Source of the DNA: an uncultured Solirubrobacterales bacterium
Lineage (GTDB): Bacteria; Actinomycetota; Thermoleophilia; Solirubrobacterales; 70-9
Assembly (NCBI GenBank): GCA_963714665.1
Contig: CAVQPE010000008.1
Location: 776,848 to 840,847 of the forward strand
Length of the DNA: 64,000 nucleotides
Direction of reading: 5' to 3'
Of the stretch, positions 16,996 to 43,605 are shown in pieces. How positions within the stretch are numbered: the stretch's first letter is position 1; each line of letters starts with the position of its first letter. Under the pieces are notes generated by a model. That model searched no databases. It saw only the letters and a program-made list of their open reading frames with translations, and was not told where the DNA came from. The translations under genes were made by a program, and so were the position numbers.

Positions 16996-17009
16996 CCCCT
17001 CCCCAGTGG

Positions 17010-17058: not shown

Positions 17059-17080
17059 CCGTCGGCGGCGTGTCCGTTGG

Positions 17081-28422: not shown

Positions 28423-30176
28423 GGCGCGGCGGGGACGGCCGCCCCGCTCTGGGGCTCCTCCGCGTGGCGGTAATGGCCGCCGCGCAGCATCGAGGTGGCG
28501 GCGGCGATCAGGCAGACGACGATCGCGAAGGCGAAGGCGATGTCGAGCCCGTCGCGGAACGGGGCCGAGATCAGGTGCGGGAAGAAGGCCGGGCCGGTGA
28601 GCACGGCGTGCGCGTGCGGGCCGAGGGCGGCGAGGGCGTGGGCGCCGGCCAGGTGCTGAATCGGGTTGTAGCCGAGGAAGGCGGCGAAGAGGATCGAGAT
28701 CGGCGGCGCGTGGGCGACCCTGTGGGCGGTGGCGGCCGAGAGGCCGTGGGCCTGCAGCCCGTGGCTCGTCGCCTCCGGCAGGCTGGAGGCGAGGCCGACG
28801 ATCATCAGGGTGAAGAAGATCCCCAGCGAGAGCACCTGGGCCGAGTTCTGGAAGGTCTGGTTCATGCCGCCGCCGGCGCCGCGGTCCCCGGGCGGCAGGC
28901 TGTTCATCACGCCGGCCCGGTTGGGCGAGGCGAAGAGCCCCATCGAGGCGCCGTTGAGGAAGAGGATCAGGGCGAAGGCCCAGTATTCGAAGTCGGTCGG
29001 CAGCAGCATCAGCAGGCCAAAGCTGAGCGCCGCCATCAGCATGCCGCCGGTGGCGAAGGGGCGGGCGCCGAAGCGGTCGGAGAGGACGCCGGAGACCGGC
29101 CCGACGATCAGCAGCCCCAGGGTCAGCGGCAGCATGTAGATGCCGGCCCACAGCGGCGTCTCGGTGAAGCTGTAGCCGTGCTCGGGCAGCCAGATTCCCT
29201 GCAGCCAGATGATCAGCATGAAGAGCAGGCCGCCGCGGGCGATCGCGGCGAGGAAGGTCGAGAGCGTGCCAAAGGTGAAGGCGCGGATGCGGAAGAGGGC
29301 GAGGCGGAACATCGGCGCGGCGACGCGGCGCTCGACCACGACGAAGGCGACCATCGAGGTGACCGAGGCCGCGACTAGGGCGATCACCCGCGGGCTGCTC
29401 CAGCCGGTCGCATGGCCGCCGTATGGGCGGATCCCGTAGGTGACCGCGACCATCGCGAAGACCAGGCCGAGGGCAAAGGTCGCGTTGCCGAGCCAGTCGA
29501 CCGGGGCAAGGCGCGGCTCGCTGCGCTCCTCCAGCTTCAGGTAGCCCCAGACCGTGCCGAAGAGGCCGACCGGGACCGAGATCAGGAAGACCAGGCGCCA
29601 GTCGATCGGCGCCAGCAGGCCGCCGAGGACGAGGCCGACGAAGAGGCCGCTGACGCCGACGATGTTGTTGATCCCCAGCGCCATGCCCCGCTGGTTGGCG
29701 GGGAAGGCATCGGTGATGATCGCGGCCGCGTTGGCGAGCAGGCAGGCGCCGCCGACGCCTTGGACGATGCGGAAGACGATCAGGTAGGTGGCGCCGGAGC
29801 GTCCCGTCATCCAGTCGACCGCGAGCAGCAGCGAGGCGGCGGTGTAGATGACGAAGCCGAGGTTGTAGATGCGGACGCGGCCGTAGATGTCGCCGAGGCG
29901 GCCGAGGCTGACGATCAGCACGCTGGAGACGACCAGGTAGCCGAGGATCATCCAGAGCAGGTAGAAGCTGTTGGCCGGGACGAGCGGGTCGAGGTGGATG
30001 CCGCGGAAGATGTCGGGCATCGCGATCAGCGTGATCGAGGCGTCGAGCGTCGCCAGCAGCACCGCCAGGGTGGTGTTGGAGAGAGCGATCCACTTGTAGG
30101 TGTCGGTGGAGTGGCCTCCCCCGGCACGCCCTGCTCTGCTCAAGCCCAACGCCACACGGGCAAAGTCTACAGGCAA
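28419..30176 (-). CDS. MFS transporter, DHA2 (EmrB/QacA, 14-TMS) family
   Basis: WIALSNTTLAVLLATLDASITLIAMPDI, LGRLGDIYGRVRIYNLGFVIYTAASLL and FRIVQGVGGA are present. The 585-aa ORF is intact. Confidence 0.85.
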   Translation of the reverse strand: MPVDFARVALGLSRAGRAGGGHSTDTYKWIALSNTTLAVLLATLDASITLIAMPDIFRGIHLDPLVPANSFYLLWMILGYLVVSSVLIVSLGRLGDIYGRVRIYNLGFVIYTAASLLLAVDWMTGRSGATYLIVFRIVQGVGGACLLANAAAIITDAFPANQRGMALGINNIVGVSGLFVGLVLGGLLAPIDWRLVFLISVPVGLFGTVWGYLKLEERSEPRLAPVDWLGNATFALGLVFAMVAVTYGIRPYGGHATGWSSPRVIALVAASVTSMVAFVVVERRVAAPMFRLALFRIRAFTFGTLSTFLAAIARGGLLFMLIIWLQGIWLPEHGYSFTETPLWAGIYMLPLTLGLLIVGPVSGVLSDRFGARPFATGGMLMAALSFGLLMLLPTDFEYWAFALILFLNGASMGLFASPNRAGVMNSLPPGDRGAGGGMNQTFQNSAQVLSLGIFFTLMIVGLASSLPEATSHGLQAHGLSAATAHRVAHAPPISILFAAFLGYNPIQHLAGAHALAALGPHAHAVLTGPAFFPHLISAPFRDGLDIAFAFAIVVCLIAAATSMLRGGHYRHAEEPQSGAAVPAAP

Positions 30177-30205
30177 ACTGTGCAGTTTGCCTGTGCTTTT
30201 TCGGT

Positions 30206-30643
30206 ATGATCCACGCTGTGCCGACCCGGGTGGACAGCGGACCGATCGCCGGTGAGCTGAGCGTTGCGCTGGGTCACCTGATCCGCCGCCTGCGCGCCCA
30301 GCACGGCTTCTCGCTGTCGCAGGGCTCGGTCCTGGGGCGACTGGATCGCGAAGGCCCGCAGTGCACGAGCGCCCTTGCGACGGCCGAGCGCGTGCGGCCG
30401 CAATCGATGGGCCAGACGGTCGCCGAGCTCGAGGAGCAGGGCTTGGTCGAGCGGCGCGCCGATCCCGACGACGGCCGCCGCACGCTGATCGAGCTGACCG
30501 AGGGGGGTCGGGTCGAGCTGCAGGAGGTCCGCGGCCGGCGAGAGGGGTGGCTGGCCGAGGCGATCGCGGAGGGCTTCAGCGACGAGGAGCGCCTAGTGCT
30601 CGAGCAGGCCGTGCCGCTGCTCGGGCGGCTGGCGGAGCTTTGA
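30206..30643 (+). CDS. MarR-family transcriptional regulator
   Basis: LSQGSVLGRLDREGPQCTSALATAERVRPQSMGQTVAELEEQGLVERRADPDDGRRTLIELTEGG is a winged-helix MarR core. It is divergent from one MFS gene and overlaps the start of the next. Confidence 0.85.
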   Translation: MIHAVPTRVDSGPIAGELSVALGHLIRRLRAQHGFSLSQGSVLGRLDREGPQCTSALATAERVRPQSMGQTVAELEEQGLVERRADPDDGRRTLIELTEGGRVELQEVRGRREGWLAEAIAEGFSDEERLVLEQAVPLLGRLAEL

Positions 30644-32115
30644 CGGCGACTGCGCAGACGAGCGACCGGCGGCGCTGGATCGCCCTGGTCGTGCTCTGCC
30701 TCGGGCAGCTGATGATCGTCCTCGACGCGACCATCGTCAATGTCGCCCTGCCCTCGATCCAGGGGGACTTGGGCTTCACCCAGGCGAGCCTGACCTGGGT
30801 CGTCAACGCCTACCTGATCGCCTTCGGCAGCTTCCTGCTGCTGGCCGGCCGGCTCGGTGACCTGATCGGCCGCAAGAAGGTCTTCATCGGCGGCCTGGCC
30901 CTGTTCACCACCGCCTCGGTGCTCTGCGGCCTCGCCGACGACCAGACGCTGCTGATCGCGGCGCGTTTCGTCCAGGGCATGGGCGGCGCGGTCGCCTCCT
31001 CGGTGATCATCGCGATCATCGTCACCGAGTTCCGCGAGCGGAGCGAGCAGGCGCGGGCGATGGGCGTCTTCACCTTCGTCGCGTCGGCGGGTGGCTCGAT
31101 CGGCTTGCTCGCGGGTGGCGTCCTCACTCACCTGCTGAGCTGGCACTGGATCTTCTTCATCAACGTGCCGATCGGGATAGCGGCGATCGGGCTCGGACTG
31201 GCCCTGATCGAGGAGAGCGAGGGGGCGGGGCTGCGCCAGGGGGTAGACGTCCTCGGCGCGGCGCTGATCACCTTCGCCGGGATGCTCCTCGTCTACGCGA
31301 TCGTGCAGACCGAGGGGTATGGCTGGGGCTCGCCGCGGACGCTCGTTCCCGGGGTGGCGTCGCTGGCGATGATCGGCGGCTTCTTCGCCTACGAGGCCCG
31401 GATCGAGAACCCGATCATGCCGCTGCGGGTGTTCGCGCTGCGCAGCCTGATGGCGGCGAACGCGGTTCGCGGCCTCCTCGTCGTGGGGATGTTCTCGTCG
31501 TTCTTCCTCGGGGCTCTCTACCTGGAGCACGTGCTCGGCTTCAGCCCGATCCGGACCGGGCTCGCCTTCCTGCCGATGACACTCGCGATCGGGGCGCTCT
31601 CGGTAGGGGTGACGCCCCGGCTGCTGACCCGCTTCGGGCCGAAGCGGACCCTGGTCCCGGGGCTGGGGTTGGCCTTCGCCGGCCTGCTCCTCTTCGCCCG
31701 CGTGCCGGTCGAAGGCAACTACTGGCGCGACCTCTTCCCGGCCTTCCTCTTGCTCGGACTCGGCGCCGGGACTTCGTTCATGCCGCTGATCACGTTGGCG
31801 ATGTCGGAGGTGCCGAAGGCCGATGCCGGCCTCGGCTCCGGCCTGATCAACACCGCTCAGCAGATGGCCGCCGCGATCGGCGTCGCCGCCCTCGGCACCG
31901 TCGCCGCCAGCCGCACAGCCGACCTTCTCGCGGCCGGTGACTCCCAGCCTGCGGCCCTCACCGCCGGCTTCCACCTCTCCTTTGCCATCGCGACCGCCTG
32001 CGTGGCCATCGCGATCGTCCTCGCCGTCGTCCTGCTGCAGTCACCGGCCCGGGAGCCCGGGCCGGAGGAGGAGCCGGGTGTCCGCGAGGAGCTGCTGGCG
32101 GACGAGATGGTCTGA
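30640..32115 (+). CDS. MFS transporter, DHA2 (EmrB/QacA) family
   Basis: The TTG start overlaps the MarR stop. WIALVVLCLGQLMIVLDATIVNVALPSIQGDLGF, AGRLGDLIGRKKVFIGG and ARFVQGMGGA are present. Confidence 0.85.
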   Translation: MTATAQTSDRRRWIALVVLCLGQLMIVLDATIVNVALPSIQGDLGFTQASLTWVVNAYLIAFGSFLLLAGRLGDLIGRKKVFIGGLALFTTASVLCGLADDQTLLIAARFVQGMGGAVASSVIIAIIVTEFRERSEQARAMGVFTFVASAGGSIGLLAGGVLTHLLSWHWIFFINVPIGIAAIGLGLALIEESEGAGLRQGVDVLGAALITFAGMLLVYAIVQTEGYGWGSPRTLVPGVASLAMIGGFFAYEARIENPIMPLRVFALRSLMAANAVRGLLVVGMFSSFFLGALYLEHVLGFSPIRTGLAFLPMTLAIGALSVGVTPRLLTRFGPKRTLVPGLGLAFAGLLLFARVPVEGNYWRDLFPAFLLLGLGAGTSFMPLITLAMSEVPKADAGLGSGLINTAQQMAAAIGVAALGTVAASRTADLLAAGDSQPAALTAGFHLSFAIATACVAIAIVLAVVLLQSPAREPGPEEEPGVREELLADEMV

Positions 32116-32126
32116 GCCGTATCTGT

Positions 32127-32176
32127 CAGACGATTTTGCGTCTAGACGATTAGACGTTTAATCGTCTAATCGTCTA
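32127..32176. promoter_or_regulatory. AT-rich array of six AGACG(A/T)TT half-sites in both orientations (candidate operator) just upstream of the Fic gene
   Basis: CAGACGATTTTGCGTCTAGACGATTAGACGTTTAATCGTCTAATCGTCTA contains the 10-bp palindrome CGTCTAGACG. It also has 14-bp inverted arms TAGACGATTAGACG (32143-32156) and CGTCTAATCGTCTA (32163-32176). Confidence 0.5.
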
Positions 32177-32186
32177 CTCTTAGGAC

Positions 32187-33290
32187 ATGATTTCCGCCAC
32201 TCCCACCCCGACGGCCGAGCTTCGGGCGCAGCTTGAGGAGCTCGACAAGCTTCGAAACGACCTCGGCCACGAGGTCGGTCGCTCCGTGCCGTGGATCGGT
32301 GCGCTTCGTCGTCAGGTTCGCGCCTCATCGGTCGAAGGCTCGACCTCGATCGAGGGATTCAGCGTCGAGCCGGGCGAGGCGGTGGCTCTTGTCAGCGGCG
32401 ATCAACAGGTCGATCCAGACGACGAGAACCGCCAGGCGGTCGCCTGCTACGCCCGTGCGATGGACCACGTCGGGGTCATGGCAACGGACCCTTCGTTTGT
32501 CTGGCACGACCGCGTCATCCTCGACCTCCACTTCGACGCCTGCTCTTTCCAGCGCAGCGAGGGCCCGGGCAGGTGGCGCAGCGGACCGGTCGGGGTGACG
32601 GGCAGCGACGGTCGCATCGTCTACCAGGCGCCCGACGCGGAGGAGGTTCCCGGGTTGATGGCCGAGGTCGTCGAGTGGCTGCAGAGCGGGGATCGCGATG
32701 CCCACGCGGTGATCCGGGCTGCGATGGCCCACCTCCACGTCGTCTCCGTGCACCCGTTCCGCGACGGCAACGGCCGCGTCTCTCGCATCGTGCAGTCCCT
32801 GGTCCTCGCGCAAGAGGGCCTGATGTCACCCGAGTTCGGCTCGATCGAGGAGTACCTCGGCGCACACACAAGCGACTACTACGCGGCGTTGAACGAGGCC
32901 CACGGCCCCTCGTACCAGCCGGAGCGAGACGCCTCCAACTGGGTCGCCTTCTGCGTCAAGGCCCACCTGGCGCAGGCCCGCCAGCGCCTGGCCCAGGTCG
33001 AGGACGCGGCGGCCCGTTGGACCTACCTTGAAGAGCTGGTCGGATCCCGCGGCTGGCCGGACCGCCTGGCGATTGCCTTGGAGCAGAGCCTCATCGGCGG
33101 CTCCGACCGCGCCGGTTATGCGACTGAGGCCGGTATCTCTCCGGCTACGGCAAGCGCCGACTTTCGTCGCCTGGTCGATGCGGGCCTGGTCGAGCAGATG
33201 GGGCGAGGCCGGAGTGTTCGCTACCGAGCGAGCGAGCGATTGCGTGGGGACGCCGATGGCTCGATCAGGGTCGAGCGAGCCTCGCCCTGA
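32187..33290 (+). CDS. Fic/DOC-family protein (AMPylase-type) with N-terminal inhibitory-motif-like sequence and C-terminal winged-helix-like tail
   Basis: HPFRDGNGRVSRIV matches the Fic motif HxFx(D/E)GNGRxxR. STSIEG fits the (S/T)xxxE(G/N) inhibitory helix motif upstream of the core. Confidence 0.85.
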   Translation: MISATPTPTAELRAQLEELDKLRNDLGHEVGRSVPWIGALRRQVRASSVEGSTSIEGFSVEPGEAVALVSGDQQVDPDDENRQAVACYARAMDHVGVMATDPSFVWHDRVILDLHFDACSFQRSEGPGRWRSGPVGVTGSDGRIVYQAPDAEEVPGLMAEVVEWLQSGDRDAHAVIRAAMAHLHVVSVHPFRDGNGRVSRIVQSLVLAQEGLMSPEFGSIEEYLGAHTSDYYAALNEAHGPSYQPERDASNWVAFCVKAHLAQARQRLAQVEDAAARWTYLEELVGSRGWPDRLAIALEQSLIGGSDRAGYATEAGISPATASADFRRLVDAGLVEQMGRGRSVRYRASERLRGDADGSIRVERASP

Positions 33291-33307
33291 ACCGGGCGCG
33301 GTCGGGC

Positions 33308-33955
33308 TTACCCGCCAAGACCGCCGAAGATCGCAAACGGGTTGGGGGGACGCTCGGCATACGCTGCCTTCCAGGTTCCCTCCGCCTTGACGTCGCTGTC
33401 AGCGGGGGCCTCGGCCTCGATCCGCTCGGCGAGGGCCTTGGCCTGGTCCTCGTCGGTCGCGCCGACGAGCAGGTACTTGCCGCGCCGCACGGCAGGCAGG
33501 CCCTCGCTCCGCAGCTGCTCCTCGAAGCGCACCGCATCGTGGCGGGACGGAAGGTCGATCCGCACCTCGTATTCGGGATGGCCACGTTTTTCCGTTTCCC
33601 GCCGCTCGGTGGCGATCAGCTCTACGTGCTCCGCTGTCCTTGCGGCGTCGTCGTCGGGAAGCGGTACGTCGGGGTCTTCCCACTCCTCCGCCGTCGGGTG
33701 CCAGTGCTTCAGCTCGGCTTCGACGTTCCAGCCATGCTCGGCCGCCAGCTTGTCGACGAGCTTCCCAGCGCTTTCGGCCTGCTCCCGGGTGCCGGCGTAG
33801 AGGAAGACGTGGTCGCCTTCGCGAGAGACGATGACCCGGTCGTGAAACGCGTCGCTGAGGTCATGTTCCAGCTCCCGGGCGTCGAGCCGATCGAGCAGCC
33901 GGCGAATGTGCTCCTGCTCTTGGAAATCGATCTGTAGGCGCCAGTCGTCGTTCAT
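33308..33955 (-). CDS. Hypothetical acidic protein
   Basis: This is an intact 215-aa ORF (MNDDWRLQIDFQEQEHIRRLLDRLDARELEHDL...). No motif was recognised. Confidence 0.5.
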   Translation of the reverse strand: MNDDWRLQIDFQEQEHIRRLLDRLDARELEHDLSDAFHDRVIVSREGDHVFLYAGTREQAESAGKLVDKLAAEHGWNVEAELKHWHPTAEEWEDPDVPLPDDDAARTAEHVELIATERRETEKRGHPEYEVRIDLPSRHDAVRFEEQLRSEGLPAVRRGKYLLVGATDEDQAKALAERIEAEAPADSDVKAEGTWKAAYAERPPNPFAIFGGLGG

Positions 33956-33962
33956 CGGTTGC

Positions 33963-34505
33963 TCAACCTACCTCCCGACCGGCCGTTCGAGCATCGTCCT
34001 CTTCGATGGAGGCCTTGATGTCCTTGACCAGGAGCTGGAGGTTCATGGGGTCGGTTTGCGACGGTTCGAAGCCGTGGTGCGCGTAGAAGTCTCGGGCCGA
34101 TTCGTTGAGCGCGTGCACGAGCATGACGCGAATCCCAAGCTCTGCCGCCGCCGCGAGGGTACGGGCCATCGCATCGCGCAGAAGGAATGATCCGAGGCCG
34201 TGACCTTGGACGCTCCGATCGACGGCCAGCCGAGCCAGCAGGACCGCCGGGATCGGATGGCTTGGCATCCCGCGGCGCGCCCGGGGACTTGCCTCGCGCC
34301 GGCTCACCGAGGCCGCGCAGAGGGCGTGGTAGCCGACCACCCGACCCTGCTCGGCGTCTTCGATGACATAGGTCCGGGCCGAGCCAGAAGCCGCGGCGAC
34401 GCGGGCGTGCTTGGGCAGCCAGGCGTTCAACGAGTCCACCCCGCAATCGAAGCCACTCAGCGGGTGATCCGGCCCCAGCGGTTCGGGGTCGCTGAAGCGC
34501 GTCAC
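33963..34505 (-). CDS. GNAT-family N-acetyltransferase toxin (TacT/KacT-like)
   Basis: LSGFDCGVDSLNAWL, YVIEDAEQGRVVGYHAL, IPAVLLARLAVDRSVQGHGLGSFLL and the adjacent DUF1778-type antitoxin gene support this call. Confidence 0.75.
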   Translation of the reverse strand: MTRFSDPEPLGPDHPLSGFDCGVDSLNAWLPKHARVAAASGSARTYVIEDAEQGRVVGYHALCAASVSRREASPRARRGMPSHPIPAVLLARLAVDRSVQGHGLGSFLLRDAMARTLAAAAELGIRVMLVHALNESARDFYAHHGFEPSQTDPMNLQLLVKDIKASIEEDDARTAGREVG

Positions 34506-34513
34506 GCCTTGCC

Positions 34514-34780
34514 CTACTCAGGGCGAGGACGAGCGAACAGTCTTGCCAGCTCCGGGCGAGCCTCGGCGGGGCGATCAAGCGCTGCGGTAAACGCTCGCCA
34601 GTCAGCATCGCCTAGGGCAAAGTGCGTGCGATCGGCCAGCAGCCGCTCCGCGCGCTCGCGGCCGCCCTCGACCAGAAATTCGGTCAAGGACTCCTCATGC
34701 AGAGACCCAGCTCGCTCGAACAACTCCTTGTCTTCGGCAGCGATACGCAGATGGACCCGCGCCGTCTTGGTCGTAGCCAT
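34514..34780 (-). CDS. DUF1778-family antitoxin (TacA-like, RHH)
   Basis: ARVHLRIAAEDKELFERAGSLHEESLTEFLVEGGRERAERLLAD is typical of DUF1778. It lies directly upstream of the GNAT toxin. Confidence 0.75.
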   Translation of the reverse strand: MATTKTARVHLRIAAEDKELFERAGSLHEESLTEFLVEGGRERAERLLADRTHFALGDADWRAFTAALDRPAEARPELARLFARPRPE

Positions 34781-34913
34781 GTGGCAAGTGTACACACGCT
34801 CCTTCGGCCATCGCGAGCGACATCAGGCAGTTTGGCTCTCTTGCCGTTGTCCTTGACCGGGTCGTGATTTCCTTGCCGCGAACCGCTCCCTCGCCTGCGG
34901 GCAATAACTACCG

Positions 34914-35507
34914 GTGGACCAAATGACCCTCGACAGCGAAGCGGTTTCCGCCTCGCTTCACACCCCGGCTGGCTTCGCGACGATCTTCGATCGCCACTTC
35001 GACGCCGTCCATGCCTACCTGCAGCGTCGGGTCGGCCCGGACCTGGCCGACGAGCTGTCGGCGCAGACCTTCCTCGTCGCCTTCGACAAGCGGGGCGGCT
35101 ACGACCTGGCCCAGCCCGATGCCCGGCCCTGGCTCTTCGGCATTGCCACCCACCTCTTGCGTCGCCACCATCGCGACGAGGTGCGCCAGTTTCGCGCCTA
35201 CGCGCGGAGCGCCGAGGACCCCGTCCTTGACGCCTTCGACGGCGTAGAGGCCAGGCTCGACGCGACGGAGATGCGCCGCGAGCTCGTCGACGCCTTGGCC
35301 GACGTCCCGGCCGAGGAGCTCGACGCGCTTCTGCTTTACGCCTGGGCCGAGCTCTCCTATCCAGAGATCGCCCGCGCTCTGGACGTCCCGACCGGGACCG
35401 TCCGCTCGCGGCTCTCACGTGCCCGCGGGCGGATTCGCGCCGCGCTGGGCGCCGACCAGCCCCAGGCCCTTGGCCAACCCGTCCCCGAGGAGGGAGGATC
35501 GCGATGA
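34914..35507 (+). CDS. ECF (group 4) RNA polymerase sigma factor
   Basis: FATIFDRHFDAVHAYLQRRVGPDLADELSAQTF is region 2. LDALLLYAWAELSYPEIARALDVPTGTVRSRLSRARGRI is region 4. Confidence 0.85.
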   Translation: MDQMTLDSEAVSASLHTPAGFATIFDRHFDAVHAYLQRRVGPDLADELSAQTFLVAFDKRGGYDLAQPDARPWLFGIATHLLRRHHRDEVRQFRAYARSAEDPVLDAFDGVEARLDATEMRRELVDALADVPAEELDALLLYAWAELSYPEIARALDVPTGTVRSRLSRARGRIRAALGADQPQALGQPVPEEGGSR

Positions 35508-36853
35508 ACGAGATCGACTTGCTGCGAGAGCTTCGTGCGGAGCTGCCCGGACCCAGGGCCGAGAGCCGGGCCTCGGCCCGGGGCGCCCTGGTCGCGCGGA
35601 TCGAGGATTCCCAGCGCCCGCGGCCGCGGGCGACCGTCCCCGCCTGGCGGCGGTCCAGGCTTCGTCTCGTCGCCGTGCTGGCGGCGGCGGCGGCCCTGCT
35701 CGTCGCCCTGCCGACCTTGATCCTCGGTGGCGATGGCAAGGTGCAGCCCGCCCTCGGCCAGGTGCTTCGCGCGGCGGCGGCGACGGCGGCCACCCAGCCT
35801 GCCGAACCGCCTCCGGGCCCGGGCCAGTACTTCTACACCCGCTCCAGGGAAGCCTATTTGACGACCTCTGTCGGCCCCAACCCGCGCTGCGCGACGAATC
35901 CATGCGACCCCGAACACCCCTGGGAAGCGACCCGGGCGTGGAGCGTGCTCGTCCCCAGGATTCGCCAGACCTGGATCGCCGCCAACGGCGCCGGCCGGGC
36001 GCGGGCGGTCGCCGCCAAGCCGGAATTCCTCACGGCTGGACAGCGCCGGGCATGGAAGGCCGCCGGATCGCCCCACCTCGGCTCCGGCGGGGTCGAAGAC
36101 TTCGCCCTCTCCGGCCAGCCCTTCCTCGACACCTCGAACCTGCCGACCGAGCCCAAGGCGCTGCGCCGGCTGATCGAAGCCCGCAAGATCCCGCGCGTCG
36201 ACGGGCCTCCCGGCGAAGCCGAGACCTTCACCCTCGTCGGCGACATGCTCCGCAACACCTACCTGCCACCGGCCTTCCGGGCCGCCCTCTACCGGGTGGT
36301 GGCGGAACTGCCCAAGGTCGAGCTGCGCGGGGAGGTGAAGGACCCGGTCGGCCGCACCGGCATCGGGGTCGCCTACACCAAAGGCAGCACCACCCACGAG
36401 TTGATCTTCGACCCCGAGACCTCGGCCCTGCTCGGCGAGCGCGAAGTAGCGGCCCGCCGGATCCCCGCTCTCCAGGTCCCGGCCGGGACCGAAATCGGCT
36501 CGGTCACCTACCTCGAATCAAAGGTGGTCGACTCGCTGGGCAAGGGAGCGCCCCCCGGCGCCGGCCACCTGCGCCAGAGCATCGGCTGCTACGAAAAACC
36601 CTCCCTGCACGCCAACACCGCGATCCTCCACGGCCCCGACCCGATCGCCACCTGCACCAAGCTCTGGCGCGAAGGCGCAATGGGCACGACCCTCGAGCGC
36701 CTGGAACGCGAAGGCAAGATCCCCAAACGCCCAGACAAGACCCCCAACCTAGTCGCCTGCGAAGGCGACTATCCGGCGGTTACCTATGTATTCCCCGGGG
36801 ACGGCCCGTCCGTCTGCAACCGGCTCGGCATGCGGCCCAGTGCGGCCGAATAG
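35504..36853 (+). CDS. Membrane-anchored partner of the ECF sigma (CU044_5270-like putative anti-sigma/sensor protein)
   Basis: The start overlaps the sigma stop (ATGA). The N-terminus MNEIDLLRELRAELPGP, a single TM LRLVAVLAAAAALLVALPTLIL and a large extracytoplasmic domain are present. Confidence 0.6.
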   Translation: MNEIDLLRELRAELPGPRAESRASARGALVARIEDSQRPRPRATVPAWRRSRLRLVAVLAAAAALLVALPTLILGGDGKVQPALGQVLRAAAATAATQPAEPPPGPGQYFYTRSREAYLTTSVGPNPRCATNPCDPEHPWEATRAWSVLVPRIRQTWIAANGAGRARAVAAKPEFLTAGQRRAWKAAGSPHLGSGGVEDFALSGQPFLDTSNLPTEPKALRRLIEARKIPRVDGPPGEAETFTLVGDMLRNTYLPPAFRAALYRVVAELPKVELRGEVKDPVGRTGIGVAYTKGSTTHELIFDPETSALLGEREVAARRIPALQVPAGTEIGSVTYLESKVVDSLGKGAPPGAGHLRQSIGCYEKPSLHANTAILHGPDPIATCTKLWREGAMGTTLERLEREGKIPKRPDKTPNLVACEGDYPAVTYVFPGDGPSVCNRLGMRPSAAE

Positions 36854-37067
36854 CCGGACCCGATCATCGTCACTGGCGCTGCCTCCAGCTACTGTCTTTT
36901 CATTCTTTTCCAGGTTGATCAACTTCCGATAAAGCTTGCAAGATCGATAAGTTCAGGGGCAACTCCAGACGGCGCCCTACATCACCGATATGCCGTGTCG
37001 ATTCTGCAAAATCCAGTCGGGCTGTGGCCGCCGATACGGGCACGGGAGGAATGAGAATTACTTTGCG

Positions 37068-37472
37068 CTACTCGTATTGCTCCATCTCGGCAACGATGTC
37101 GTCACGACCTCGATGGCTCGCTTGACTAATCGCTCGATAAGCCAAATAACAGCCCACCCCAGCAAGCGCGAATGGCAACGAGCTTTGATCGTGATGATCA
37201 ACAGCTACGCCGCCAAGGGCACCAGTTAGCGTCAGCCAGACAGCACCAGCATCGGCCCTTGCTTTGATCCGATACTTCAAGCGCCGCCATGCTTGCCATG
37301 GAACCAAGACGGCATCGTCAGATGTCTGGACAACTCTAAAAGGTGGCCGTGGAAATTCGGAAACCTCTGCGGCAATGCCATTGTACTCGGATTTACCGCG
37401 CATGCCTGACCCTGGCAGGTATTGCTCAGTACTGCGCCGCTGCGCCTGTTTTCTTGATCCTGATCTTGCCAT
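37068..37472 (-). CDS. Hypothetical small protein with C-terminal hydrophobic segments (island ORF)
   Basis: This 134-aa ORF contains AVWLTLTGALGGVAV and LPFALAGVGCYLAY. No family was recognised. Confidence 0.4.
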   Translation of the reverse strand: MARSGSRKQAQRRSTEQYLPGSGMRGKSEYNGIAAEVSEFPRPPFRVVQTSDDAVLVPWQAWRRLKYRIKARADAGAVWLTLTGALGGVAVDHHDQSSLPFALAGVGCYLAYRAISQASHRGRDDIVAEMEQYE

Positions 37473-37529
37473 TTGCGTCCCCTAAGCGTCATATGCCTTA
37501 TCGGCTAAGACGCACCGGAAGCAAATGGC

Positions 37530-37931
37530 TCAGGTCACGCTTAGCCCCATCATCGGAAGCGGATTTCGGTTGTTTCGCTGCAAGAGATCGTCATCGACAT
37601 GCAGCTTCGTCCTATTTCCGCTCTGCCGGATCAGAGCCCTTCTCTTAGGTACTGCGAAGGCTCTAATCCACCACGCAAATGTCGCAATTTGCGGAACGGC
37701 AATGAGAAGGAATGGCCATGCGAATGGCCCATCGCCAGCTCCAATGAAAGCAATGACCGAAAGTGCTGCCACCCAAGAGAGGCTGAACAATTCTAGGAGA
37801 GACGGCCATGATCTAGGACTATTGGCATTCGACTCTGAACCGCATTCGAAAAAGGAGTCAGAAAACCTTTCCGGCTCAGCTAGTCGTTCCGGATGAACAG
37901 GAAGCCAATGGAGAATTTCCCCCACAGGCAC
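37530..37931 (-). CDS. Hypothetical two-TM membrane protein (island ORF)
   Basis: This 133-aa ORF contains LFSLSWVAALSVIAFIGAG and WPFLLIAVPQIATFAWWIRAF. Confidence 0.4.
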   Translation of the reverse strand: MPVGEILHWLPVHPERLAEPERFSDSFFECGSESNANSPRSWPSLLELFSLSWVAALSVIAFIGAGDGPFAWPFLLIAVPQIATFAWWIRAFAVPKRRALIRQSGNRTKLHVDDDLLQRNNRNPLPMMGLSVT

Positions 37932-38215
37932 AATTTAGGGGACCAGAGCTTCATCGTCAAGCATTGAATCGAGTCGGTTGTCGATGCCCTCCGTCAATGA
38001 CTAAAGTCCAAACGGATGCCGTAGTTCAAAGCGGGCGAGATACCCTGCACCAAACGTGCTTTCAGGAATCCAGCCGGGGCCGCGGGTAACTCGCGCTCGC
38101 TTCCGCTGCGCGTCTTGCCCACTACGTCGCGAGCGCGCGGGGCGCGTAGCGCCCGGTCAGACTCGCAGGCAAGGCCAGCCCGGCCGTAGACGGTGCCTTG
38201 CGCCACCACCGCCGC

Positions 38216-39211
38216 TTACAGAGCTTCCCCGGCGGAATCCAGGCGGGCCTTGGTCTTGTCTCGGGCTTCGGCGATCGTGTCGGAGGTCAGGAGCAGGTCG
38301 ATCGCGACCCAGACAGGCTGGGAAGGCCAGAGCTTTCCCATTGGTACCTCTATGGAGGGTTCGATGGCCGGTCCCAAGCTGAAAACCCAATGGCGCTCCC
38401 CGGACCAGTCAACCTTCCCTTTAAGCGGCTCGAAACCCGCGTAGTTGTCGTTGGCGATGCGGTAGTCCTCCACATGACGTATCTGCTGGAGTTTGCCGTC
38501 GAACCGGAAGCCAAGGTAGTTCGGGGGCTCCTTTGGCCAGCCTCCGCGACCTCCGCCAACGGGACAGAAGTAGGTGTGGTGGTTAACAACGACATCGCGG
38601 AAGCTGATGCCGGTGTCCCCGATCTCCTTGCCCAGGCTGACGACGTAGACGAGATTAGATAGAACGTTCTGCATGGTCATCAAGCCTCTCAGGTAGCGAG
38701 ACAGATCGCGCAGGAGTCGTTTCTCGCGGTGGCGCCGGGACTTGCTGGCGGCCTCCGTGGCAAGAGCCTCGACCTGTCGCCAAGACCGATACACGACGGG
38801 AACGCCCTGAACCCGTTTGGGCAGCCGCCCGGAGACAAACTCGGGCGGGGCCTCTGCGAAGACAGCCAACATCGTTGCTGGCGGCTTCGTTCTAGTCGCG
38901 TACTTCGCCAGTTGGTCGTCGCCGGGAAGGCCATAGCCGCGCTTGGCCTCAATAACGAGGCGAAACTTTCCTCCATTCCCGGCGATCTCGATATCGGTAA
39001 AGCCAGCGCCGGGGACGCCCTCTTGGAGGCCGACGATTTCCACCTGGGCCTTGCCAGGGGAAGCGTGAAGGTCGCGCAGCAACGCCTGAGAGAATTGTTC
39101 ACTCTCTGCCAGCGCCCAGCCGACCGAGTAGGTGATGTCGTTCTCCTTGTCGCCGAGCAGGTCGAAGACGGTGCCTACCGGCCGTCCGTACAGCTTTAGC
39201 TCGACTGGCAT
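38216..39211 (-). CDS. Putative PD-(D/E)xK-fold nuclease with uncharacterised C-terminal domain (island ORF)
   Basis: GFTDIEIAGNGGKFRLVIEAKRGYG gives a D-x13-E-A-K arrangement on predicted beta strands. The 331-aa ORF is intact. The C-terminal roughly 170 aa (HHTYFCPVGGGRGGWPKEPPNYLGFRFDGKLQQIRHVEDY...) is unassigned. Confidence 0.5.
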   Translation of the reverse strand: MPVELKLYGRPVGTVFDLLGDKENDITYSVGWALAESEQFSQALLRDLHASPGKAQVEIVGLQEGVPGAGFTDIEIAGNGGKFRLVIEAKRGYGLPGDDQLAKYATRTKPPATMLAVFAEAPPEFVSGRLPKRVQGVPVVYRSWRQVEALATEAASKSRRHREKRLLRDLSRYLRGLMTMQNVLSNLVYVVSLGKEIGDTGISFRDVVVNHHTYFCPVGGGRGGWPKEPPNYLGFRFDGKLQQIRHVEDYRIANDNYAGFEPLKGKVDWSGERHWVFSLGPAIEPSIEVPMGKLWPSQPVWVAIDLLLTSDTIAEARDKTKARLDSAGEAL

Positions 39212-39240
39212 CGCAAAGAGCGGTGGCTTGCTGCGAGCAT

Positions 39241-39498
39241 CTACCCGTCAGGTGGAAACTCGCCAAGCAGGGTGCGCCTCACACCGTAGCCGTTTGGCGT
39301 ATATCGCCAATGGTCCGGCTTGAATTCCTCGGCATAGCCTTTCACCTGCAAGCTCGCCAGGGCCGCTGCCACTTCGTCGGGCTCTAGCGGTGGTTCGTGG
39401 GTCACCTCGATACAGATTCGGTCGAAACTTTCAAGCTGCGACTCCCTGATGAGGCACCGGAAGACTCGGAACTCGGGTCCGTGAAGGGGCTCGGCCAT
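39241..39498 (-). CDS. Small winged-helix-like protein upstream of the nuclease candidate (island ORF)
   Basis: In this 85-aa ORF, EVAAALASLQVKGYAEEFKPDHWRYTPNGYGV resembles a recognition helix plus wing. It lies 29 bp upstream of 38216-39211 on the same strand. Confidence 0.35.
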   Translation of the reverse strand: MAEPLHGPEFRVFRCLIRESQLESFDRICIEVTHEPPLEPDEVAAALASLQVKGYAEEFKPDHWRYTPNGYGVRRTLLGEFPPDG

Positions 39499-39582
39499 TT
39501 CCCCAAGGTATCGGGCTGCTCGGCTACGTCAATCAGCCATCACGACAGGATGGGTGTCCGCCGCCGGGGCCAGCATTGCAGC

Positions 39583-40101
39583 ATGGACATCGCCGCTGTT
39601 GTCGCAGTTGCCCTCGCAGCAGTATCAGCCATCGCAGCCGCTGTGTCCGCAATAGCGACGAGACAGTCGGTGGATCGGTCGCACCGGCCTTTCGTGTGGC
39701 CCGCCATTTCGCACGGCACGGACGGCGAGGCGAGAATTTTGCGGGTCCGACTTCACAATGACGGGGCCGGAACCGCATACGAAGTTCGGTGGTCCTTCGG
39801 AAGCCTGGCGGAAACACAGGAGGGCGGGTTTGTCGAGGACAGCAAGGGCGCAGCGGGGCAGGCGTCGATGGCGATCCGGGCAATCAGAGCAGGAGAGAGC
39901 GTCCCCCCGGAGGAAAGTGGCTGGCTGGACAAAGAGGTCCAGCTACCGCCAGACGACATCGGCTGGATTCTTGTCCGGTGGAGCGATGCCGCAGGCGTTC
40001 GATGGGAGGTTTCAGATCAGGGACCGGCGACTTCGCGCGGAAGGCCACGCAGGCTTCGGACGTGGAAGTGGCAGTTCTGGCGAGCCCCCGCAGACTGGTA
40101 G
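39583..40101 (+). CDS. N-terminally TM-anchored hypothetical protein, beta-rich ectodomain (island ORF)
   Basis: MDIAAVVAVALAAVSAIAAAVSAIA is the anchor, followed by ILRVRLHNDGAGTAYEVRWSF...WILVRWSDAAGVRWEV. Confidence 0.4.
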   Translation: MDIAAVVAVALAAVSAIAAAVSAIATRQSVDRSHRPFVWPAISHGTDGEARILRVRLHNDGAGTAYEVRWSFGSLAETQEGGFVEDSKGAAGQASMAIRAIRAGESVPPEESGWLDKEVQLPPDDIGWILVRWSDAAGVRWEVSDQGPATSRGRPRRLRTWKWQFWRAPADW

Positions 40102-40174
40102 TACTACCCGGCAGGGCCTATTCAGCCTGACGACGCCTGAATGCGACCAGCGCGCTCCGCCGCAATCAGGGCTA

Positions 40175-40711
40175 TTAGCTGACCGCGAACGTCTGATGAC
40201 GTAGGCCCAGCACCGTTGCCGCGTAAATCTCGAAGACCGCAGCGAGGCGGTTGTCGGTGATCTCGACCACCTGGAAATCCCAACGGGCGATCCGTTCGCA
40301 TTGACGGCGAAACTCAGCCATGAACTCGGGGTCGGCGCAATTCTCCTTCCGGGTTCCGGCGAGGGGCAGCTTCTTCCCGTGGAAGCTCCGCACGGTTCGC
40401 GCGTAGGCGTAGGTGCCCTCGTTGTGGCGAGGTCGGACATGACCCCGAAGGCGGGTGCGGAAGTTCGAGAACTTCTTGCCCGCGCGCTTTGAGCGCTCCG
40501 TCAGGCCCACCCGGCCGACGTAGCGCGGCCTTCCCCTCTCCGAGAACAGGTACACGCCGTAAGTCGCTGGCGGAGGGTCGCGATCCTCGCCCAAGCCGTA
40601 GATCGGTGAGTCCAGAAGACGGGTCAGAAGATCGGGGAGCTGCTTCGTGATCTCTGCATCCCATTGACGCTCCCTTGCGATGATCTTTAGTGTTTTCCGC
40701 TTGGTCGCCAT
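40175..40711 (-). CDS. GIY-YIG-like nuclease-domain protein (island ORF)
   Basis: YGVYLFSERGRPRYVGRVG gives GVY, 9 residues, then YVG. It is followed by RTRLRGH and NEGTYAY, consistent with the GIY-YIG core order. This is a pattern-level call only. Confidence 0.4.
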   Translation of the reverse strand: MATKRKTLKIIARERQWDAEITKQLPDLLTRLLDSPIYGLGEDRDPPPATYGVYLFSERGRPRYVGRVGLTERSKRAGKKFSNFRTRLRGHVRPRHNEGTYAYARTVRSFHGKKLPLAGTRKENCADPEFMAEFRRQCERIARWDFQVVEITDNRLAAVFEIYAATVLGLRHQTFAVS

Positions 40712-40787
40712 ATTCGCCTGCGCTCATCCGCGTGCAAGACGCTACAAGCTTTGGTCAGACGGTTGGTTTGCTGGGTAGAATCGGTTT

Positions 40788-40991
40788 ATGTCCGCTGTCC
40801 CAAGTTACCTGGAGTGCAAAGCATGTGGAGGGATTGGCTACGTCGCGATACGTGATGAAACAGTGGACCCTGCGGAATATCGCCCCGCCAAATGGGTTCC
40901 CTGCCATGACTGTAAGGGCACGGGCAACAGGACCAAGCAGGGGCCAATACGCGAGGTACCTCCATACTCGCCCGACAGTTTTGTCAAGTAG
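40788..40991 (+). CDS. DnaJ-type zinc-finger miniprotein (two CxxCxGxG motifs) (island ORF)
   Basis: The 67-aa ORF has CKACGGIG and CHDCKGTG. TAGAAT at 40776-40781 lies 6 nt before the ATG, which suggests a leaderless transcript. Confidence 0.5.
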   Translation: MSAVPSYLECKACGGIGYVAIRDETVDPAEYRPAKWVPCHDCKGTGNRTKQGPIREVPPYSPDSFVK

Positions 40992-41071
40992 ACACGACGG
41001 CGAGTATTCCGCTGGCGACAAGAGCCGACAGCCGACTCTTCCCTGATACGACTCGAACTGATCCGCATCCA

Positions 41072-42229
41072 ATGCGGGCAATCGAGAGCGAGTACGGCTT
41101 CTTTCAGCGGGTAGATGATCCGGCTTGCGGTCGAATCCGAGCCGTGCTCAATGAATGGTTCGATCGGTTTCTCTCGATGCAAAAGGCCGAAGCTGTGTCG
41201 GACTTGCGGGGCCGATTTCGGGCTAAGGAAGATGGCCAATTCAAGTCCGCGTTCTGGGAGCTGTATTTGCATGAGATGTTCGTGAGGCTCGGATTTGATA
41301 TCTCCGTTCACCCGCTATCTGAACGCGGGAAGCGCCCCGATTTCGTTCTTCGCAGAGAGGATCAGCGCTTCTATCTGGAGGCAGTCATGTCGACCCCCGG
41401 ATTCTCCGGTCGCAACGAGCCGCGTAACGTCCAAATGGTGATCGAGCACGTCAACGAGGCGTATCACCCGGACTTCCTTCTTCGGCTGCACTATGTCATC
41501 GCGGGCGACGAGACCCCACGAAGGGCTACCGTTCGCAAGGAGGTCTCCGATTGGCTTTACGGGCTCGCCTGGGAGGACATCTGGAAGGACGACCTGGCGA
41601 GCAGCGTCCATCCCGAGACCGCGATTGAGGTTGACGGGGGATGGAAGATCGGCTTGACCGCCTTGCCTCTGCCCCCCGAGAACCGAGGCCGGGAGAAGGG
41701 ACCGATGATCTTTGCCTACCAGGGATTCGTGGGCAATGCGGATGGACTCGGTCTAGCAATTCTTCCTGGCCTCCACGAAAAGGCCAACAAGTACGGTGAC
41801 CTCGATGCGCCGCATGTCATAGCTCTGTGGGTCATGGATGCGATGGCAAGCGAGGACACAGCGGCGCTTGCGCTATTCGGGGGCTGGTTCTCGACGGAGG
41901 AGGGAACGCATCGAACGGGGCTGAATCTCAGAAAGGAGAGGACGAAATCGCTATGGAGTCCGAGCGCGAAGCACCGGGAGCGAGCGAGCGCCGTCCTTGC
42001 AACCAACAGCTTTGAATTTGGCTATCCAGCCATTGCTCGGACGCTTCCTCGACTCTGGCCAAACCCGTGGGCCAACCGACCTCTCTCGACAGGTTTGCCG
42101 TTCGCACGATCACTGGTATCCGGGGACGAAGAAACCGCCGAGAACGTCGCCGCGACGATCACGGCGAGCGAGCTTTTCGGCCTTCCCACTGACTGGCCTG
42201 GGCGGGCGTTTCAGGGTGAATCAGAGTAG
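41072..42229 (+). CDS. Hypothetical 385-aa protein with a possible degenerate PD-ExK-like N-terminal motif (island ORF)
   Basis: GKRPDFVLRREDQRFYLEAVMS shows PD, about 12 residues, then E-A-V with no Lys. The rest is unassigned. Confidence 0.35.
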   Translation: MRAIESEYGFFQRVDDPACGRIRAVLNEWFDRFLSMQKAEAVSDLRGRFRAKEDGQFKSAFWELYLHEMFVRLGFDISVHPLSERGKRPDFVLRREDQRFYLEAVMSTPGFSGRNEPRNVQMVIEHVNEAYHPDFLLRLHYVIAGDETPRRATVRKEVSDWLYGLAWEDIWKDDLASSVHPETAIEVDGGWKIGLTALPLPPENRGREKGPMIFAYQGFVGNADGLGLAILPGLHEKANKYGDLDAPHVIALWVMDAMASEDTAALALFGGWFSTEEGTHRTGLNLRKERTKSLWSPSAKHRERASAVLATNSFEFGYPAIARTLPRLWPNPWANRPLSTGLPFARSLVSGDEETAENVAATITASELFGLPTDWPGRAFQGESE

Positions 42230-42259
42230 TCGCGCCGAGGCTTGAACTCTCTGGGCGGG

Positions 42260-42943
42260 CTACTGGCTCGGTTTTGCTTCCACGATCTGGATGTTCCAAT
42301 GCTGCTCGCCGAAGAACTGAGCAATGAAGCGCAAAAACTTCCGATGGCTCCGGGGGTCGGACCCGCGATAGGGAATCGTGACGTTGTAGACGATTCCCAT
42401 ATGGATTTCCTGCGAGCCCCCGACCTGGGGCGTGAGCTTGATCTGGCCCTCCGCGCCAGCAGCCAGGGAAGGGGGGACGAGTATGCCCATTCCGCCTCGG
42501 CCTTCACCCTCGCCGCACGTCGCTTCGGCGCGATCCACGTCGAGAACGGCGACGCCGTTCCCGGCATTTATCACTCCAAGAAAGGTCGGCGTTACTTCAA
42601 CGTGCTGAGGCTCGCGCATGATCGGCTCAGAGGGTCCGATTCGCGCCGAACTCATACTTGCTGGAATCAAGTTCGGGGTGACTTGCAGGCTCAAAGCCTT
42701 CTGCGCGACCTCGGCTTGTTCGGAGATCGCGCTCATCTGGACGCGGTTGAGTTCCAGTTGTTCGACTGCGAGCCGCAGGGTCGCCGTGTTCTGCTGCTGG
42801 CTCTCCTGATTCTGATCCTCGTTCAGTCTGAGCAGGCGGTAATTGAGGAGGAGCGAAACCACGGCGACGACGGCTAGGGCGAGCGTGCCAATGGCCGCTG
42901 CTTCGCTCGCGGGAAGACCAAACAGGGCTAGCGCCAAGTTCAC
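42260..42943 (-). CDS. N-terminally TM-anchored protein with coiled-coil and beta-rich domain (island ORF)
   Basis: AAAIGTLALAVVAVVSLLL is the anchor and NEDQNQESQQQNTATLRLAVEQLELNRVQMSAISEQAEVAQKAL is coil-like. These are followed by FLGVINAGNGVAVLDV.... Confidence 0.4.
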   Translation of the reverse strand: MNLALALFGLPASEAAAIGTLALAVVAVVSLLLNYRLLRLNEDQNQESQQQNTATLRLAVEQLELNRVQMSAISEQAEVAQKALSLQVTPNLIPASMSSARIGPSEPIMREPQHVEVTPTFLGVINAGNGVAVLDVDRAEATCGEGEGRGGMGILVPPSLAAGAEGQIKLTPQVGGSQEIHMGIVYNVTIPYRGSDPRSHRKFLRFIAQFFGEQHWNIQIVEAKPSQ

Positions 42944-42984
42944 GGTGGATTAAGCGGGGCGCTGGACGAGCCCAGTCCGCCTAC

Positions 42985-43269
42985 CTACGAATTCAAGAAT
43001 TCGAGCAGCCACCGGTCGTTGCAGAGGAGTTCGCCCTCGAACGCACCACCGCCAGAAAGGGAGACGACCAAGAGGCGGTCATCATCGTCCATCAATTCCC
43101 AGAGGTGGTTGCGAATGGCCTCGGCGTCGCCGTCGCTCTTGAGCACCCAGACCGACTTCTCAACCTCTTTGGCGCTCGGGTACTCCTCAATACGCTCGAT
43201 CAACCGCCGGTAGCTCGCCGAGGTCTCATTGGGTCCGTCGAGGTCGTAAGCGACGAGGTAGTTGCTCAT
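42985..43269 (-). CDS. Small ferredoxin-fold-like protein reminiscent of Cas2/VapD (island ORF)
   Basis: The 94-aa ORF shows the pattern NYLVAYDL - YRRLIERIEEY - VEKSVWVLKS - AEAIRNHLWELM - DRLLVVSL, which suggests beta-alpha-beta-beta-alpha-beta. No CRISPR array or cas1 is present in the window. Confidence 0.25.
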   Translation of the reverse strand: MSNYLVAYDLDGPNETSASYRRLIERIEEYPSAKEVEKSVWVLKSDGDAEAIRNHLWELMDDDDRLLVVSLSGGGAFEGELLCNDRWLLEFLNS

Positions 43270-43533
43270 TCCGAGAAAGAGATTACACCGGACCTAATAT
43301 CATACGATTTCTTCCCGTCCAACACGGAGGTGGGAGGGCCGTGCCCCGAGATCGAACGGGACTGTTTGTGGGCGAACGACAGACGCGGTATAGGTGACCG
43401 GCCTCCGCCGGTTCGAGCCGTAAACTTCCAATGACAAGCGAGTCGTAGGGTCTTGCGATTCGAGCTGTAGAGCCAAGTTCAGGACGGGGTTAGAACCACC
43501 TCCGATTTCTTGGCTCTACAAAGGGAAATCCGA

Positions 43534-43605
43534 TGGGCGCGGCTGGGTTCGAACCAGCGACCTCTCGCGTGTGAGGCGAGCGCTCTCCCGCTGAGCTACG
43601 CGCCC
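43534..43605 (-). tRNA. tRNA-Val (anticodon CAC)
   Basis: The reverse complement reads GGGCGCG-TA-GCTC-AGCGGGA-GAGC-G-CTCGC-CTCACAC-GCGAG-AGGTC-GCTGG-TTCGAAC-CCAGC-CGCGCCC-A. A 12-bp hairpin (TGTAGAGCCAAG / CTTGGCTCTACA, about 43468-43520) follows its 3' end. Confidence 0.9.

Follow-up and report, generated by a model that had tools for sequence, protein, structure and literature searches.

The 331-aa gene and its surroundings

The stretch of DNA studied here (the window) comprises 64,000 nucleotides from an uncultured Solirubrobacterales bacterium (GCA_963714665.1, contig CAVQPE010000008.1, positions 776,848 to 840,847). On its reverse strand lies a gene for a protein of 331 amino acids (aa), in which a predicted nuclease domain is followed by a predicted PUA-like barrel, and which we describe as a candidate stand-alone, modification-dependent endonuclease. 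A first-pass annotation, made from the nucleotide letters, had read this gene as a candidate PD-(D/E)xK nuclease and had combined it with a smaller open reading frame (ORF) into a two-gene module. Both ORFs (331 aa and 85 aa) were found again on one strand and 29 bp apart, together with the peptides quoted for them, and the interpretation as a whole is partly supported by the results given below. The features of the locus are listed in Table 1.

Table 1. Features in and around the 331-aa gene, in positions of the window.
Feature	Position	Strand	Basis or remark
331-aa gene	38216..39211	-	ORF; candidate stand-alone modification-dependent (Type IV-like) endonuclease
N-terminal PD-(D/E)xK (RecB-like) nuclease domain, residues 1-143	38783..39211	-	Core in the AlphaFold2 model, Foldseek
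D73 codon, putative metal-binding Asp at the start of beta2	38993..38995	-	Invariant (126/126); coordinates verified
E88-A89-K90 codons, putative catalytic ExK at the end of beta3	38942..38950	-	Conservation; coordinates verified
Q100-L-A-K-Y104 codons, RecB/Cas4-type QxxxY in the helix after beta3	38900..38914	-	Conservation; translation QLAKY verified
Two-helix linker, residues 144-182, ending in the conserved GLMTMQ	38666..38782	-	Model helices 144-157 and 161-180
C-terminal PUA-like (ASCH/YTH/EVE-type) beta-barrel, residues 183-331, putative modified-base reader	38219..38665	-	Domain-only model, Foldseek
85-aa ORF	39241..39498	-	Conserved small gene; facultative, subclade-specific neighbour of the nuclease gene
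178-aa GIY-YIG-like gene	40175..40711	-	Recurrent yet separable neighbour of the nuclease gene in its close clade
Low-GC block (guanine plus cytosine 0.53-0.63 vs about 0.69) holding the 331-aa gene	36854..43533	.	Composition; inner part of the variable region
tRNA-Val(cac), bounding the island	43534..43605	-	ARAGORN

The N-terminal nuclease domain

The full-length AlphaFold2 model of the protein (predicted local distance difference test, pLDDT, 85.4; predicted template modelling score, pTM, 0.57) consists of two domains, and the pTM indicates that their mutual orientation is uncertain. Residues 1-143 form in this model an alpha-beta-beta-beta-alpha-beta core of the restriction-endonuclease type. 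When the full model was compared by Foldseek with viral models (BFVD), PD-(D/E)XK superfamily proteins were found (E 4.6e-6 and 1.1e-5, prob 1.00), and the other matches included RecB-family, "Restriction endonuclease" and Mrr-type entries. The matches of the full model in the PDB were weak (E 3.6e-3) and comprised the small subunit of R.BspD6I, the Cap4 nuclease and ACE1/Cas4.

The nuclease had been proposed on account of a D-x13-E-x-K arrangement. The motif itself is present, with the spacing D73-x14-E88-A-K90. As D-x(10-20)-E-x-K also occurs in 43 % of composition-preserving shuffles of the protein, the bare motif proves nothing, and it is conservation and position which lift it above chance. 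In a set consisting of the query and 125 representatives that are 33-72 % identical to it, D73, E88, K90 and Y104 are invariant in all 126 sequences. E23 is found in 121 of the 121 sequences in which it is aligned, Q100 and P96 in 125 out of 126 and A89 in 122 out of 126. The same residues are kept in homologues from Bacillota, Gammaproteobacteria, Mycobacterium, Acidobacteriota and Acidimicrobiia, including those encoded on plasmids. In the model D73 directly precedes strand 74-78, E88-x-K90 ends the adjacent strand 83-89, and Q100xxxY104 lies in the helix that comes after the latter. A QxxxY motif following the ExK strand defines the RecB/Cas4/lambda-Exo branch of the PD-(D/E)xK nucleases; we take Q100xxxY104 to be this RecB-family motif, and the layout of the domain to be of the RecB/Cas4 type.

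No Pfam, NCBIfam or PHROG model was matched by the query or by 41 members of its family. Only one member (P0138) has a weak, sub-threshold match to Pfam PDDEXK_4 (E 7.5e-4), which extends across the motif region. Nevertheless, the predicted core, the Foldseek matches and the conservation of the residues bear out the nuclease assignment: in terms of the model, the N-terminal half is a RecB-like PD-(D/E)xK nuclease domain with a strictly conserved E23/D73/E88-x-K90/Q100xxxY104 site.

The C-terminal barrel

The remainder of the protein had been described as an unassigned domain of 170 aa. The domain is real, although smaller, as it spans about 149 aa (residues 183-331) after the two-helix linker. 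Because the two-domain model diluted the full-length Foldseek search of the PDB, this part was refolded alone from an alignment of 42 sequences. The resulting domain-only model (pLDDT 92.8, pTM 0.88) displays the signature of a PUA-like fold, a pseudo-barrel of five or six strands in which strand 1 is followed by a helix. A comparison with EVE, ASCH, SRA and PUA-like readers of modified bases, which had been suggested along with the original annotation, points to a PUA-like (ASCH/YTH/EVE-type) barrel: the top 50 PDB fold matches are almost all ASCH, YTH, EVE or PUA-like proteins. The best match is ZmASCH (E 2.7e-3, prob 1.00, TM-score 0.48-0.53). Others are the ASCH protein af2351, YTHDF1-3, MRB1, TTHA0113 and TRIP4-ASCH with double-stranded DNA (dsDNA); of these, YTHDF1-3 and MRB1 are readers of N6-methyladenine (m6A). 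VcaM4I, a modification-dependent restriction enzyme of the EVE-HNH type, is matched as well (prob 0.91).

In the conservation set a near-invariant block (N186, Y214, W225-P226, P229-P230-N231-Y232, F235-R236, D305 and R323) is seen in this domain, which also has a conserved motif of the family's own, WPKEPPNYLGFR. Judged from the alignment, the near-invariant residues Y214, W225, Y232, F235, R236 and H246 are candidates to line a base pocket. The fold class is consistent among the matches, but their scores are borderline and no sequence model for ASCH, EVE or YTH is matched; we therefore file the domain as "PUA-like, ASCH/YTH-like" and as a member of no single one of these families.

These fold neighbours also bring an RNA target into consideration. 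In such a case the barrel would recognise a modified RNA base, for instance in tRNA, rRNA or a transcript of a phage, and RNA would be cut by the PD-(D/E)xK domain, in the way of an abortive-infection or toxin-like protein. ZmASCH, the best match, is a ribonuclease for single-stranded RNA, most of the YTH matches are readers of m6A in RNA, and ASCH proteins act on N4-acetylcytidine (ac4C) in tRNA, according to one preprint (bioRxiv 10.64898/2026.02.27.708502). In addition, RNA has been predicted to be the target of some Type IV relatives (PMC11090510). However, a RecB-like site with QxxxY is typical of DNA nucleases, the family as a whole lacks an antitoxin-like partner, and the architecture parallels that of DNA-cutting modification-dependent enzymes. 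We consider an RNA-directed nuclease unlikely.

The protein family

The 331-aa protein has no match in Pfam, NCBIfam, PADLOC or PHROGs, and no PDB chain is matched by its sequence, whether it is used singly or as a profile. Scans of 41 family members with the Pfam, NCBIfam, PADLOC and PHROG models gave nothing usable, and the same was true for distant homologues from plasmids. The family itself comprises 955 clusters at 90 % identity (E <= 1e-3) and 888 representatives at 50 % identity. Nearly all members have a length of 320-335 aa, can be aligned end to end and are annotated merely as "hypothetical protein". They are spread in a patchy way over at least eight phyla and occur in Solirubrobacterales, other Thermoleophilia, Acidimicrobiia, Acidobacteriota and Chloroflexia, further in Christensenellaceae, Myxococcota, Planctomycetia, Opitutaceae and others. 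The loci were scanned for the family by its most conserved peptide, [RK]GLMTMQ[ND]. Seven plasmids carry a family member.

Apart from P0138 with its weak PDDEXK_4 match and a protein of 779 aa from a metagenome (P0210), the longer members contribute nothing, and informative fusions are lacking among them. In P0210 a Phage_integrase domain (residues 204-393) precedes the nuclease family region (residues 519-774), which could be a fusion with a tyrosine integrase or a read-through. Two diverged paralogues each were seen in OY970164.1 (L039 and L042, about 72 kb apart) and in MFD09222.bin.1.14 (L017 and L047). Such pairs within one genome are as expected if the specificities of the paralogues differ.

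Sporadic distribution and the tRNA-Val island

Of 25 genomes of the same genus only four have the 331-aa gene, one of them as a mere remnant of 46 aa, and none of the 16 genomes from the order's other genera has it. Its surroundings in the window agree with this picture. The region from about 28.4 to 43.5 kb has no counterpart in the relatives G005, G009 and G010, though the tRNA-Val gene and the antiporter gene are syntenic there. This antiporter, which forms the right flank, belongs to the core genome (83-85 % identity in seven out of seven relatives); the gene at the left flank is not conserved. In G005 about 600 bp separate the tRNA-Val gene from the place that corresponds to 28.4 kb in the window. 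Two relatives carry other inserts at this place, G010 one of 2.5 kb with a partial tRNA copy of 52 nt (L061, positions 14139-14188 and 16664-16739) and G009 one of 3.3 kb with a partial copy of 28 nt (L062, positions 13622-13649 and 16983-17064). Different inserts flanked by partial tRNA copies indicate that the tRNA-Val gene is an integration hotspot in this genus. For the island in the window we found no partial tRNA-Val copy of the attachment-site type, no bounding direct repeat and no integrase; its boundaries are thus drawn from composition and synteny alone.

The part of the variable region with normal GC content (28400-36850), which is missing in the three relatives, contains several genes of accessory type, as read from the ORF translations only. 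They include two transporters of the major facilitator superfamily with a MarR-like gene, a protein with the Fic motif HPFRDGNGR (32187-33290), a GNAT-like/small-antitoxin-like pair (33963-34795), and a gene of 449 aa, not conserved in the relatives, that comes after a sigma-factor-like gene.

The distribution bears directly on the question whether the protein could be a housekeeping nuclease of DNA repair or recombination, as its RecB-like motifs might suggest. A gene which is present in four of 25 genomes of its genus and in none of the 16 from the rest of the order, which lies in an island missing from relatives, which has copies on plasmids and which is part of no conserved operon hardly fits such a role, and we find it scarcely credible. 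A housekeeping repair function was rejected, since the sporadic distribution contradicts it. The survey of the homologues' neighbourhoods, which had been named as a check on the annotation, likewise revealed mobile or defence-type settings and not housekeeping operons.

The 85-aa ORF

In the first-pass annotation the 85-aa ORF was the second half of the module and was called winged-helix-like. There are indeed arguments for a protein that the nuclease would require as a DNA-binding regulator or antitoxin: the two genes lie on the same strand with the short gap given above, the 13 homologues of the 85-aa ORF show good conservation (60-86 % identity), and in L055 and L065 the ORF is located upstream of the nuclease gene in the same order as in the window. 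However, these 13 homologues stand against about 950 of the nuclease. The ORF is absent from all 53 genome loci and also from L056, where the nuclease homologue is 86 % identical and the GIY-YIG-like gene is the upstream neighbour, and in L064 it is present without any trace of the nuclease gene. A two-gene module is therefore not supported.

Nor was a winged-helix or other helix-turn-helix (HTH) nature borne out, as no such model is matched and profile searches against PDB and Pfam gave nothing significant. The matches obtained are at noise level (CBL-B UBA 0.47, TrmB 0.11, HTH_22 0.28). A scan for promoters and terminators around the 85-aa ORF and the nuclease gene was uninformative. An obligatory pair of nuclease and small DNA-binding protein appears very improbable to us; the ORF is at most a lineage-specific accessory outside the core system and is perhaps a regulator.

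Neighbouring genes

In order to survey the genetic neighbourhood, the flanking ORFs of 57 loci were clustered all against all. No neighbour conserved throughout the family was found among these loci. Additionally, the two nearest genes on each side were scanned in 42 diverse loci (150 proteins). This flank scan yielded serine recombinases, integrases, XRE HTH regulators, HNH nucleases, parts of PIN/RHH toxin-antitoxin systems and AAA ATPases, and the defence models matched were Shedu SduA, REase_II, mad1, PDC-S44 and others. L055 contains a large serine recombinase, and on the plasmids SocA and HipA toxin-antitoxin genes and transposases are among the neighbours. The sporadic distribution, the missing counterparts of the island and the lack of a common neighbour lead to the conclusion that the 331-aa gene is an accessory, horizontally moving gene without an obligatory partner.

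Two neighbours recur, each of them specific to one clade. A GIY-YIG-like gene of 165-178 aa was found near the nuclease gene in nine loci of the clade with at least 65 % identity (the window, L001, L002, L004, L006, L007, L008, L055 and L056) and also in G015/L058 and G017/L060, altogether in four arrangements. The versions from L055 and L008 match Pfam GIY-YIG above threshold (E about 1e-6). In G017/L060 this gene is intact beside a nuclease remnant of 43 aa, which indicates that the two genes are separable. The GIY-YIG-like gene may encode a defence nuclease in its own right or a partner that is facultative. In six loci of a clade with about 50 % identity the neighbour is a DUF429 gene, usually in convergent orientation (L054 9778-10575, L016 8986-9828 and four more loci), which is a full-length match to the PADLOC single-gene defence candidate PDC-S44 (E about 3e-34).

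Three further ORFs of the low-GC block were looked at. The protein of 385 aa encoded at 41072-42229 (+) matches with its N-terminal third PADLOC PD-T7-5 (E 7e-12), PD-T7-1 and phrog_8571, and in L001 a homologue with 25 % identity immediately precedes the nuclease homologue. The protein of 94 aa from 42985-43269 (-) has a match to phrog_1090 (E 8e-17) and weak ones to Cas2 models; neither a CRISPR array nor cas genes were noticed in its vicinity. Between the 85-aa ORF and the GIY-YIG-like gene, 39583-40101 (+) is a candidate ORF of about 172 aa from an internal Met, which has an N-terminal hydrophobic helix and no family match.

The neighbourhood is also informative about a nucleotide-sensing effector, in which binding of a free modified nucleotide, or of a signalling nucleotide set free during infection, by the PUA-like domain would unleash non-specific DNA degradation and abortive infection. 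The PUA domain of the PUA-Cal-HAD system senses N6-methyl-dAMP (m6-dAMP), as shown in a 2026 preprint (10.64898/2026.01.15.699771), and the effector nuclease Cap4 is among the fold matches of the N-terminal domain. However, this likeness to Cap4 is limited to the generic nuclease fold (prob about 0.5), and no cyclase or other signal-generating gene recurs near the family, with capP occurring once among the 150 neighbours. An effector of this kind seems quite unlikely, and a signalling-nucleotide effector was rejected because no cyclase is encoded nearby.

A candidate modification-dependent nuclease

Taken together, we think that the 331-aa protein is probably, with considerable room for doubt, a self-contained modification-dependent (Type IV) restriction-type nuclease without a methyltransferase. 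The five other explanations considered in this paper all rank below this one. The fusion of a nuclease domain with a modification-reader domain is found at the fold level, that is in the predicted structures. PUA-superfamily reader plus nuclease ORFs are typically not located beside methyltransferase genes, which is a signature of modification-dependent enzymes (Lutz et al. 2019, PMC6765204). In the flank scan no recurrent methyltransferase family was detected among the 150 proteins of the 42 loci, and there is no methyltransferase gene in the island of the window or on the three plasmids examined. The lack of a recurrent methyltransferase near the family counts for a modification-dependent enzyme, and for the same reason a Type II restriction-modification system was rejected.

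By analogy with PvuRts1I/AbaSI (nuclease then SRA) and VcaM4I (EVE then HNH), the barrel would flip out and inspect a modified base when DNA of a phage or plasmid enters the cell. Recognition of the base would then position or license the nuclease domain, which probably acts as a dimer, for a cut close by.

The host itself restricts which mark could be read. Its contig C8 (G000) encodes two intact C5-methyltransferases, a third one that appears split over frames and one N6/N4 methyltransferase (509828-510865, 633384-634331, 976230-977319 and 38688-39578). Therefore the mark, or the sequence context in which it is read, must differ from those of the host. A broad activity dependent on 5-methylcytosine (5mC) or m6A would be self-toxic in the presence of these enzymes, and this is the first of several points that weigh against a modification-dependent nuclease. 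The scores for the PUA-like fold are borderline (E about 3e-3, TM about 0.5), and the Pfam models ASCH, EVE and YTH do not match the C-terminal domain at E <= 1. ASCH domains studied to date bind or process RNA, N4-acylcytosines or plain dsDNA, and a role as reader of DNA modifications is unproven for them (PMC11037411). Furthermore, there is no PADLOC model that matches the protein, and no homologue was found in 50,697 phage records. In L054 two N6_N4 methyltransferase genes lie 1.2 kb from the nuclease homologue. These seem to belong to another system, as the locus contains Gabija-like AAA_15/21 and UvrD genes and a cluster of methyltransferase and ResIII genes. Finally, the support is computational throughout and comes from fold, sequence and context.

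An alternative is a nuclease of mobile elements which does not depend on modification. It would be specific for a sequence or structure, with the barrel as a plain binder of nucleic acids, and would act in the competition of plasmids or islands or, by some other cue for self and non-self, against unmodified invader DNA. This is consistent with the TRIP4 ASCH-dsDNA complexes among the fold matches of the barrel, with the location of the genes on plasmids and beside genes for recombinases or integrases, and with the unproven reader role of ASCH domains just mentioned. On the other hand, a nuclease that is unregulated and has neither a methyltransferase nor an immunity partner should be toxic, yet about 900 clusters of the family stand alone, and the best fold neighbours outside the ASCH proteins are dedicated readers of modified bases (YTH, and the EVE domain of VcaM4I). 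We regard a modification-independent nuclease as not very likely.

If the protein is modification-dependent, a widespread defence gene of soil bacteria is gained and possibly a new epigenetic tool. A more far-reaching version, which is conceivable but doubtful in our view, is that the ASCH-like PUA domain serves as sensor of a DNA modification, in the first nuclease family of this kind, and that the mark is one other than the 5mC or 5-hydroxymethylcytosine (5hmC) which the known PUA-type enzymes cover. It is with similar reserve that we name examples of such marks: m6A or N4-methylcytosine in a particular context, or a hypermodification of phages such as a deazaguanine or a glycosylated base. 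Were this so, the family would represent a new class of Type IV defence enzyme that is common in soil Actinomycetota, and it would offer a reagent to map the modification that is read. The family is a compact single-gene test case that is easy to handle in experiments, and homologues are available from the cultured genera Paenibacillus (P. amylolyticus pY5S7-1, WP_338709073.1) and Salinimonas (S. iocasae plas12, WP_139758183.1).

Comparison with known systems

Modification-dependent (Type IV) restriction enzymes, which serve to map 5mC and 5hmC, derive mainly from proteins that join a nuclease to a PUA-superfamily reader, and such a fusion is their standard build. The kind of system is known. 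The family itself is unnamed and large, and lies outside the curated libraries.

The domain order with an N-terminal PD-(D/E)xK domain and a C-terminal PUA-superfamily reader is that of PvuRts1I/AbaSI, Type IV enzymes that depend on 5hmC or its glucosylated form (ghmC) (PMC12707154). The 331-aa protein resembles these enzymes in that one chain of about 300 aa joins a cleavage domain of the PD-(D/E)xK type at the N-terminus to a base-reading barrel of the PUA superfamily at the C-terminus; like them, it is encoded without a methyltransferase and is carried on mobile DNA. It differs in the reader, which is an SRA domain in PvuRts1I/AbaSI and is closest to ASCH/YTH/EVE here, and in the RecB-type QxxxY motif of its nuclease. 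Homology to PvuRts1I/AbaSI is not indicated either by sequence matches in the PDB, searched with the single sequence or a profile, or by the top 50 fold matches.

The group of VcaM4I and TspA15I likewise joins a PUA-superfamily reader to a nuclease, and VcaM4I (6yex) is itself a fold match of the C-terminal domain. However, the nuclease is of the HNH type there and of the PD-(D/E)xK type here, and the order of the domains is reversed. In the screen by Lutz et al. the sensor is N-terminal in all cases without an SRA domain, and fusions of PUA with PD-(D/E)XK are rare (PMC6765204). One of the few reported PUA-superfamily plus PD-(D/E)XK fusions is YenY4I (PUA-DUF3427-PD-(D/E)XK). This enzyme has about 600 aa and three domains, with an N-terminal sensor and DUF3427 in the middle, none of which applies to the 331-aa protein. 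The best structural neighbours of the C-terminal domain are the ASCH proteins (ZmASCH, YqfB and the ASCH domain of TRIP4), but these are stand-alone binders of RNA, ac4C or dsDNA, whereas in the 331-aa protein the barrel is fused to a nuclease.

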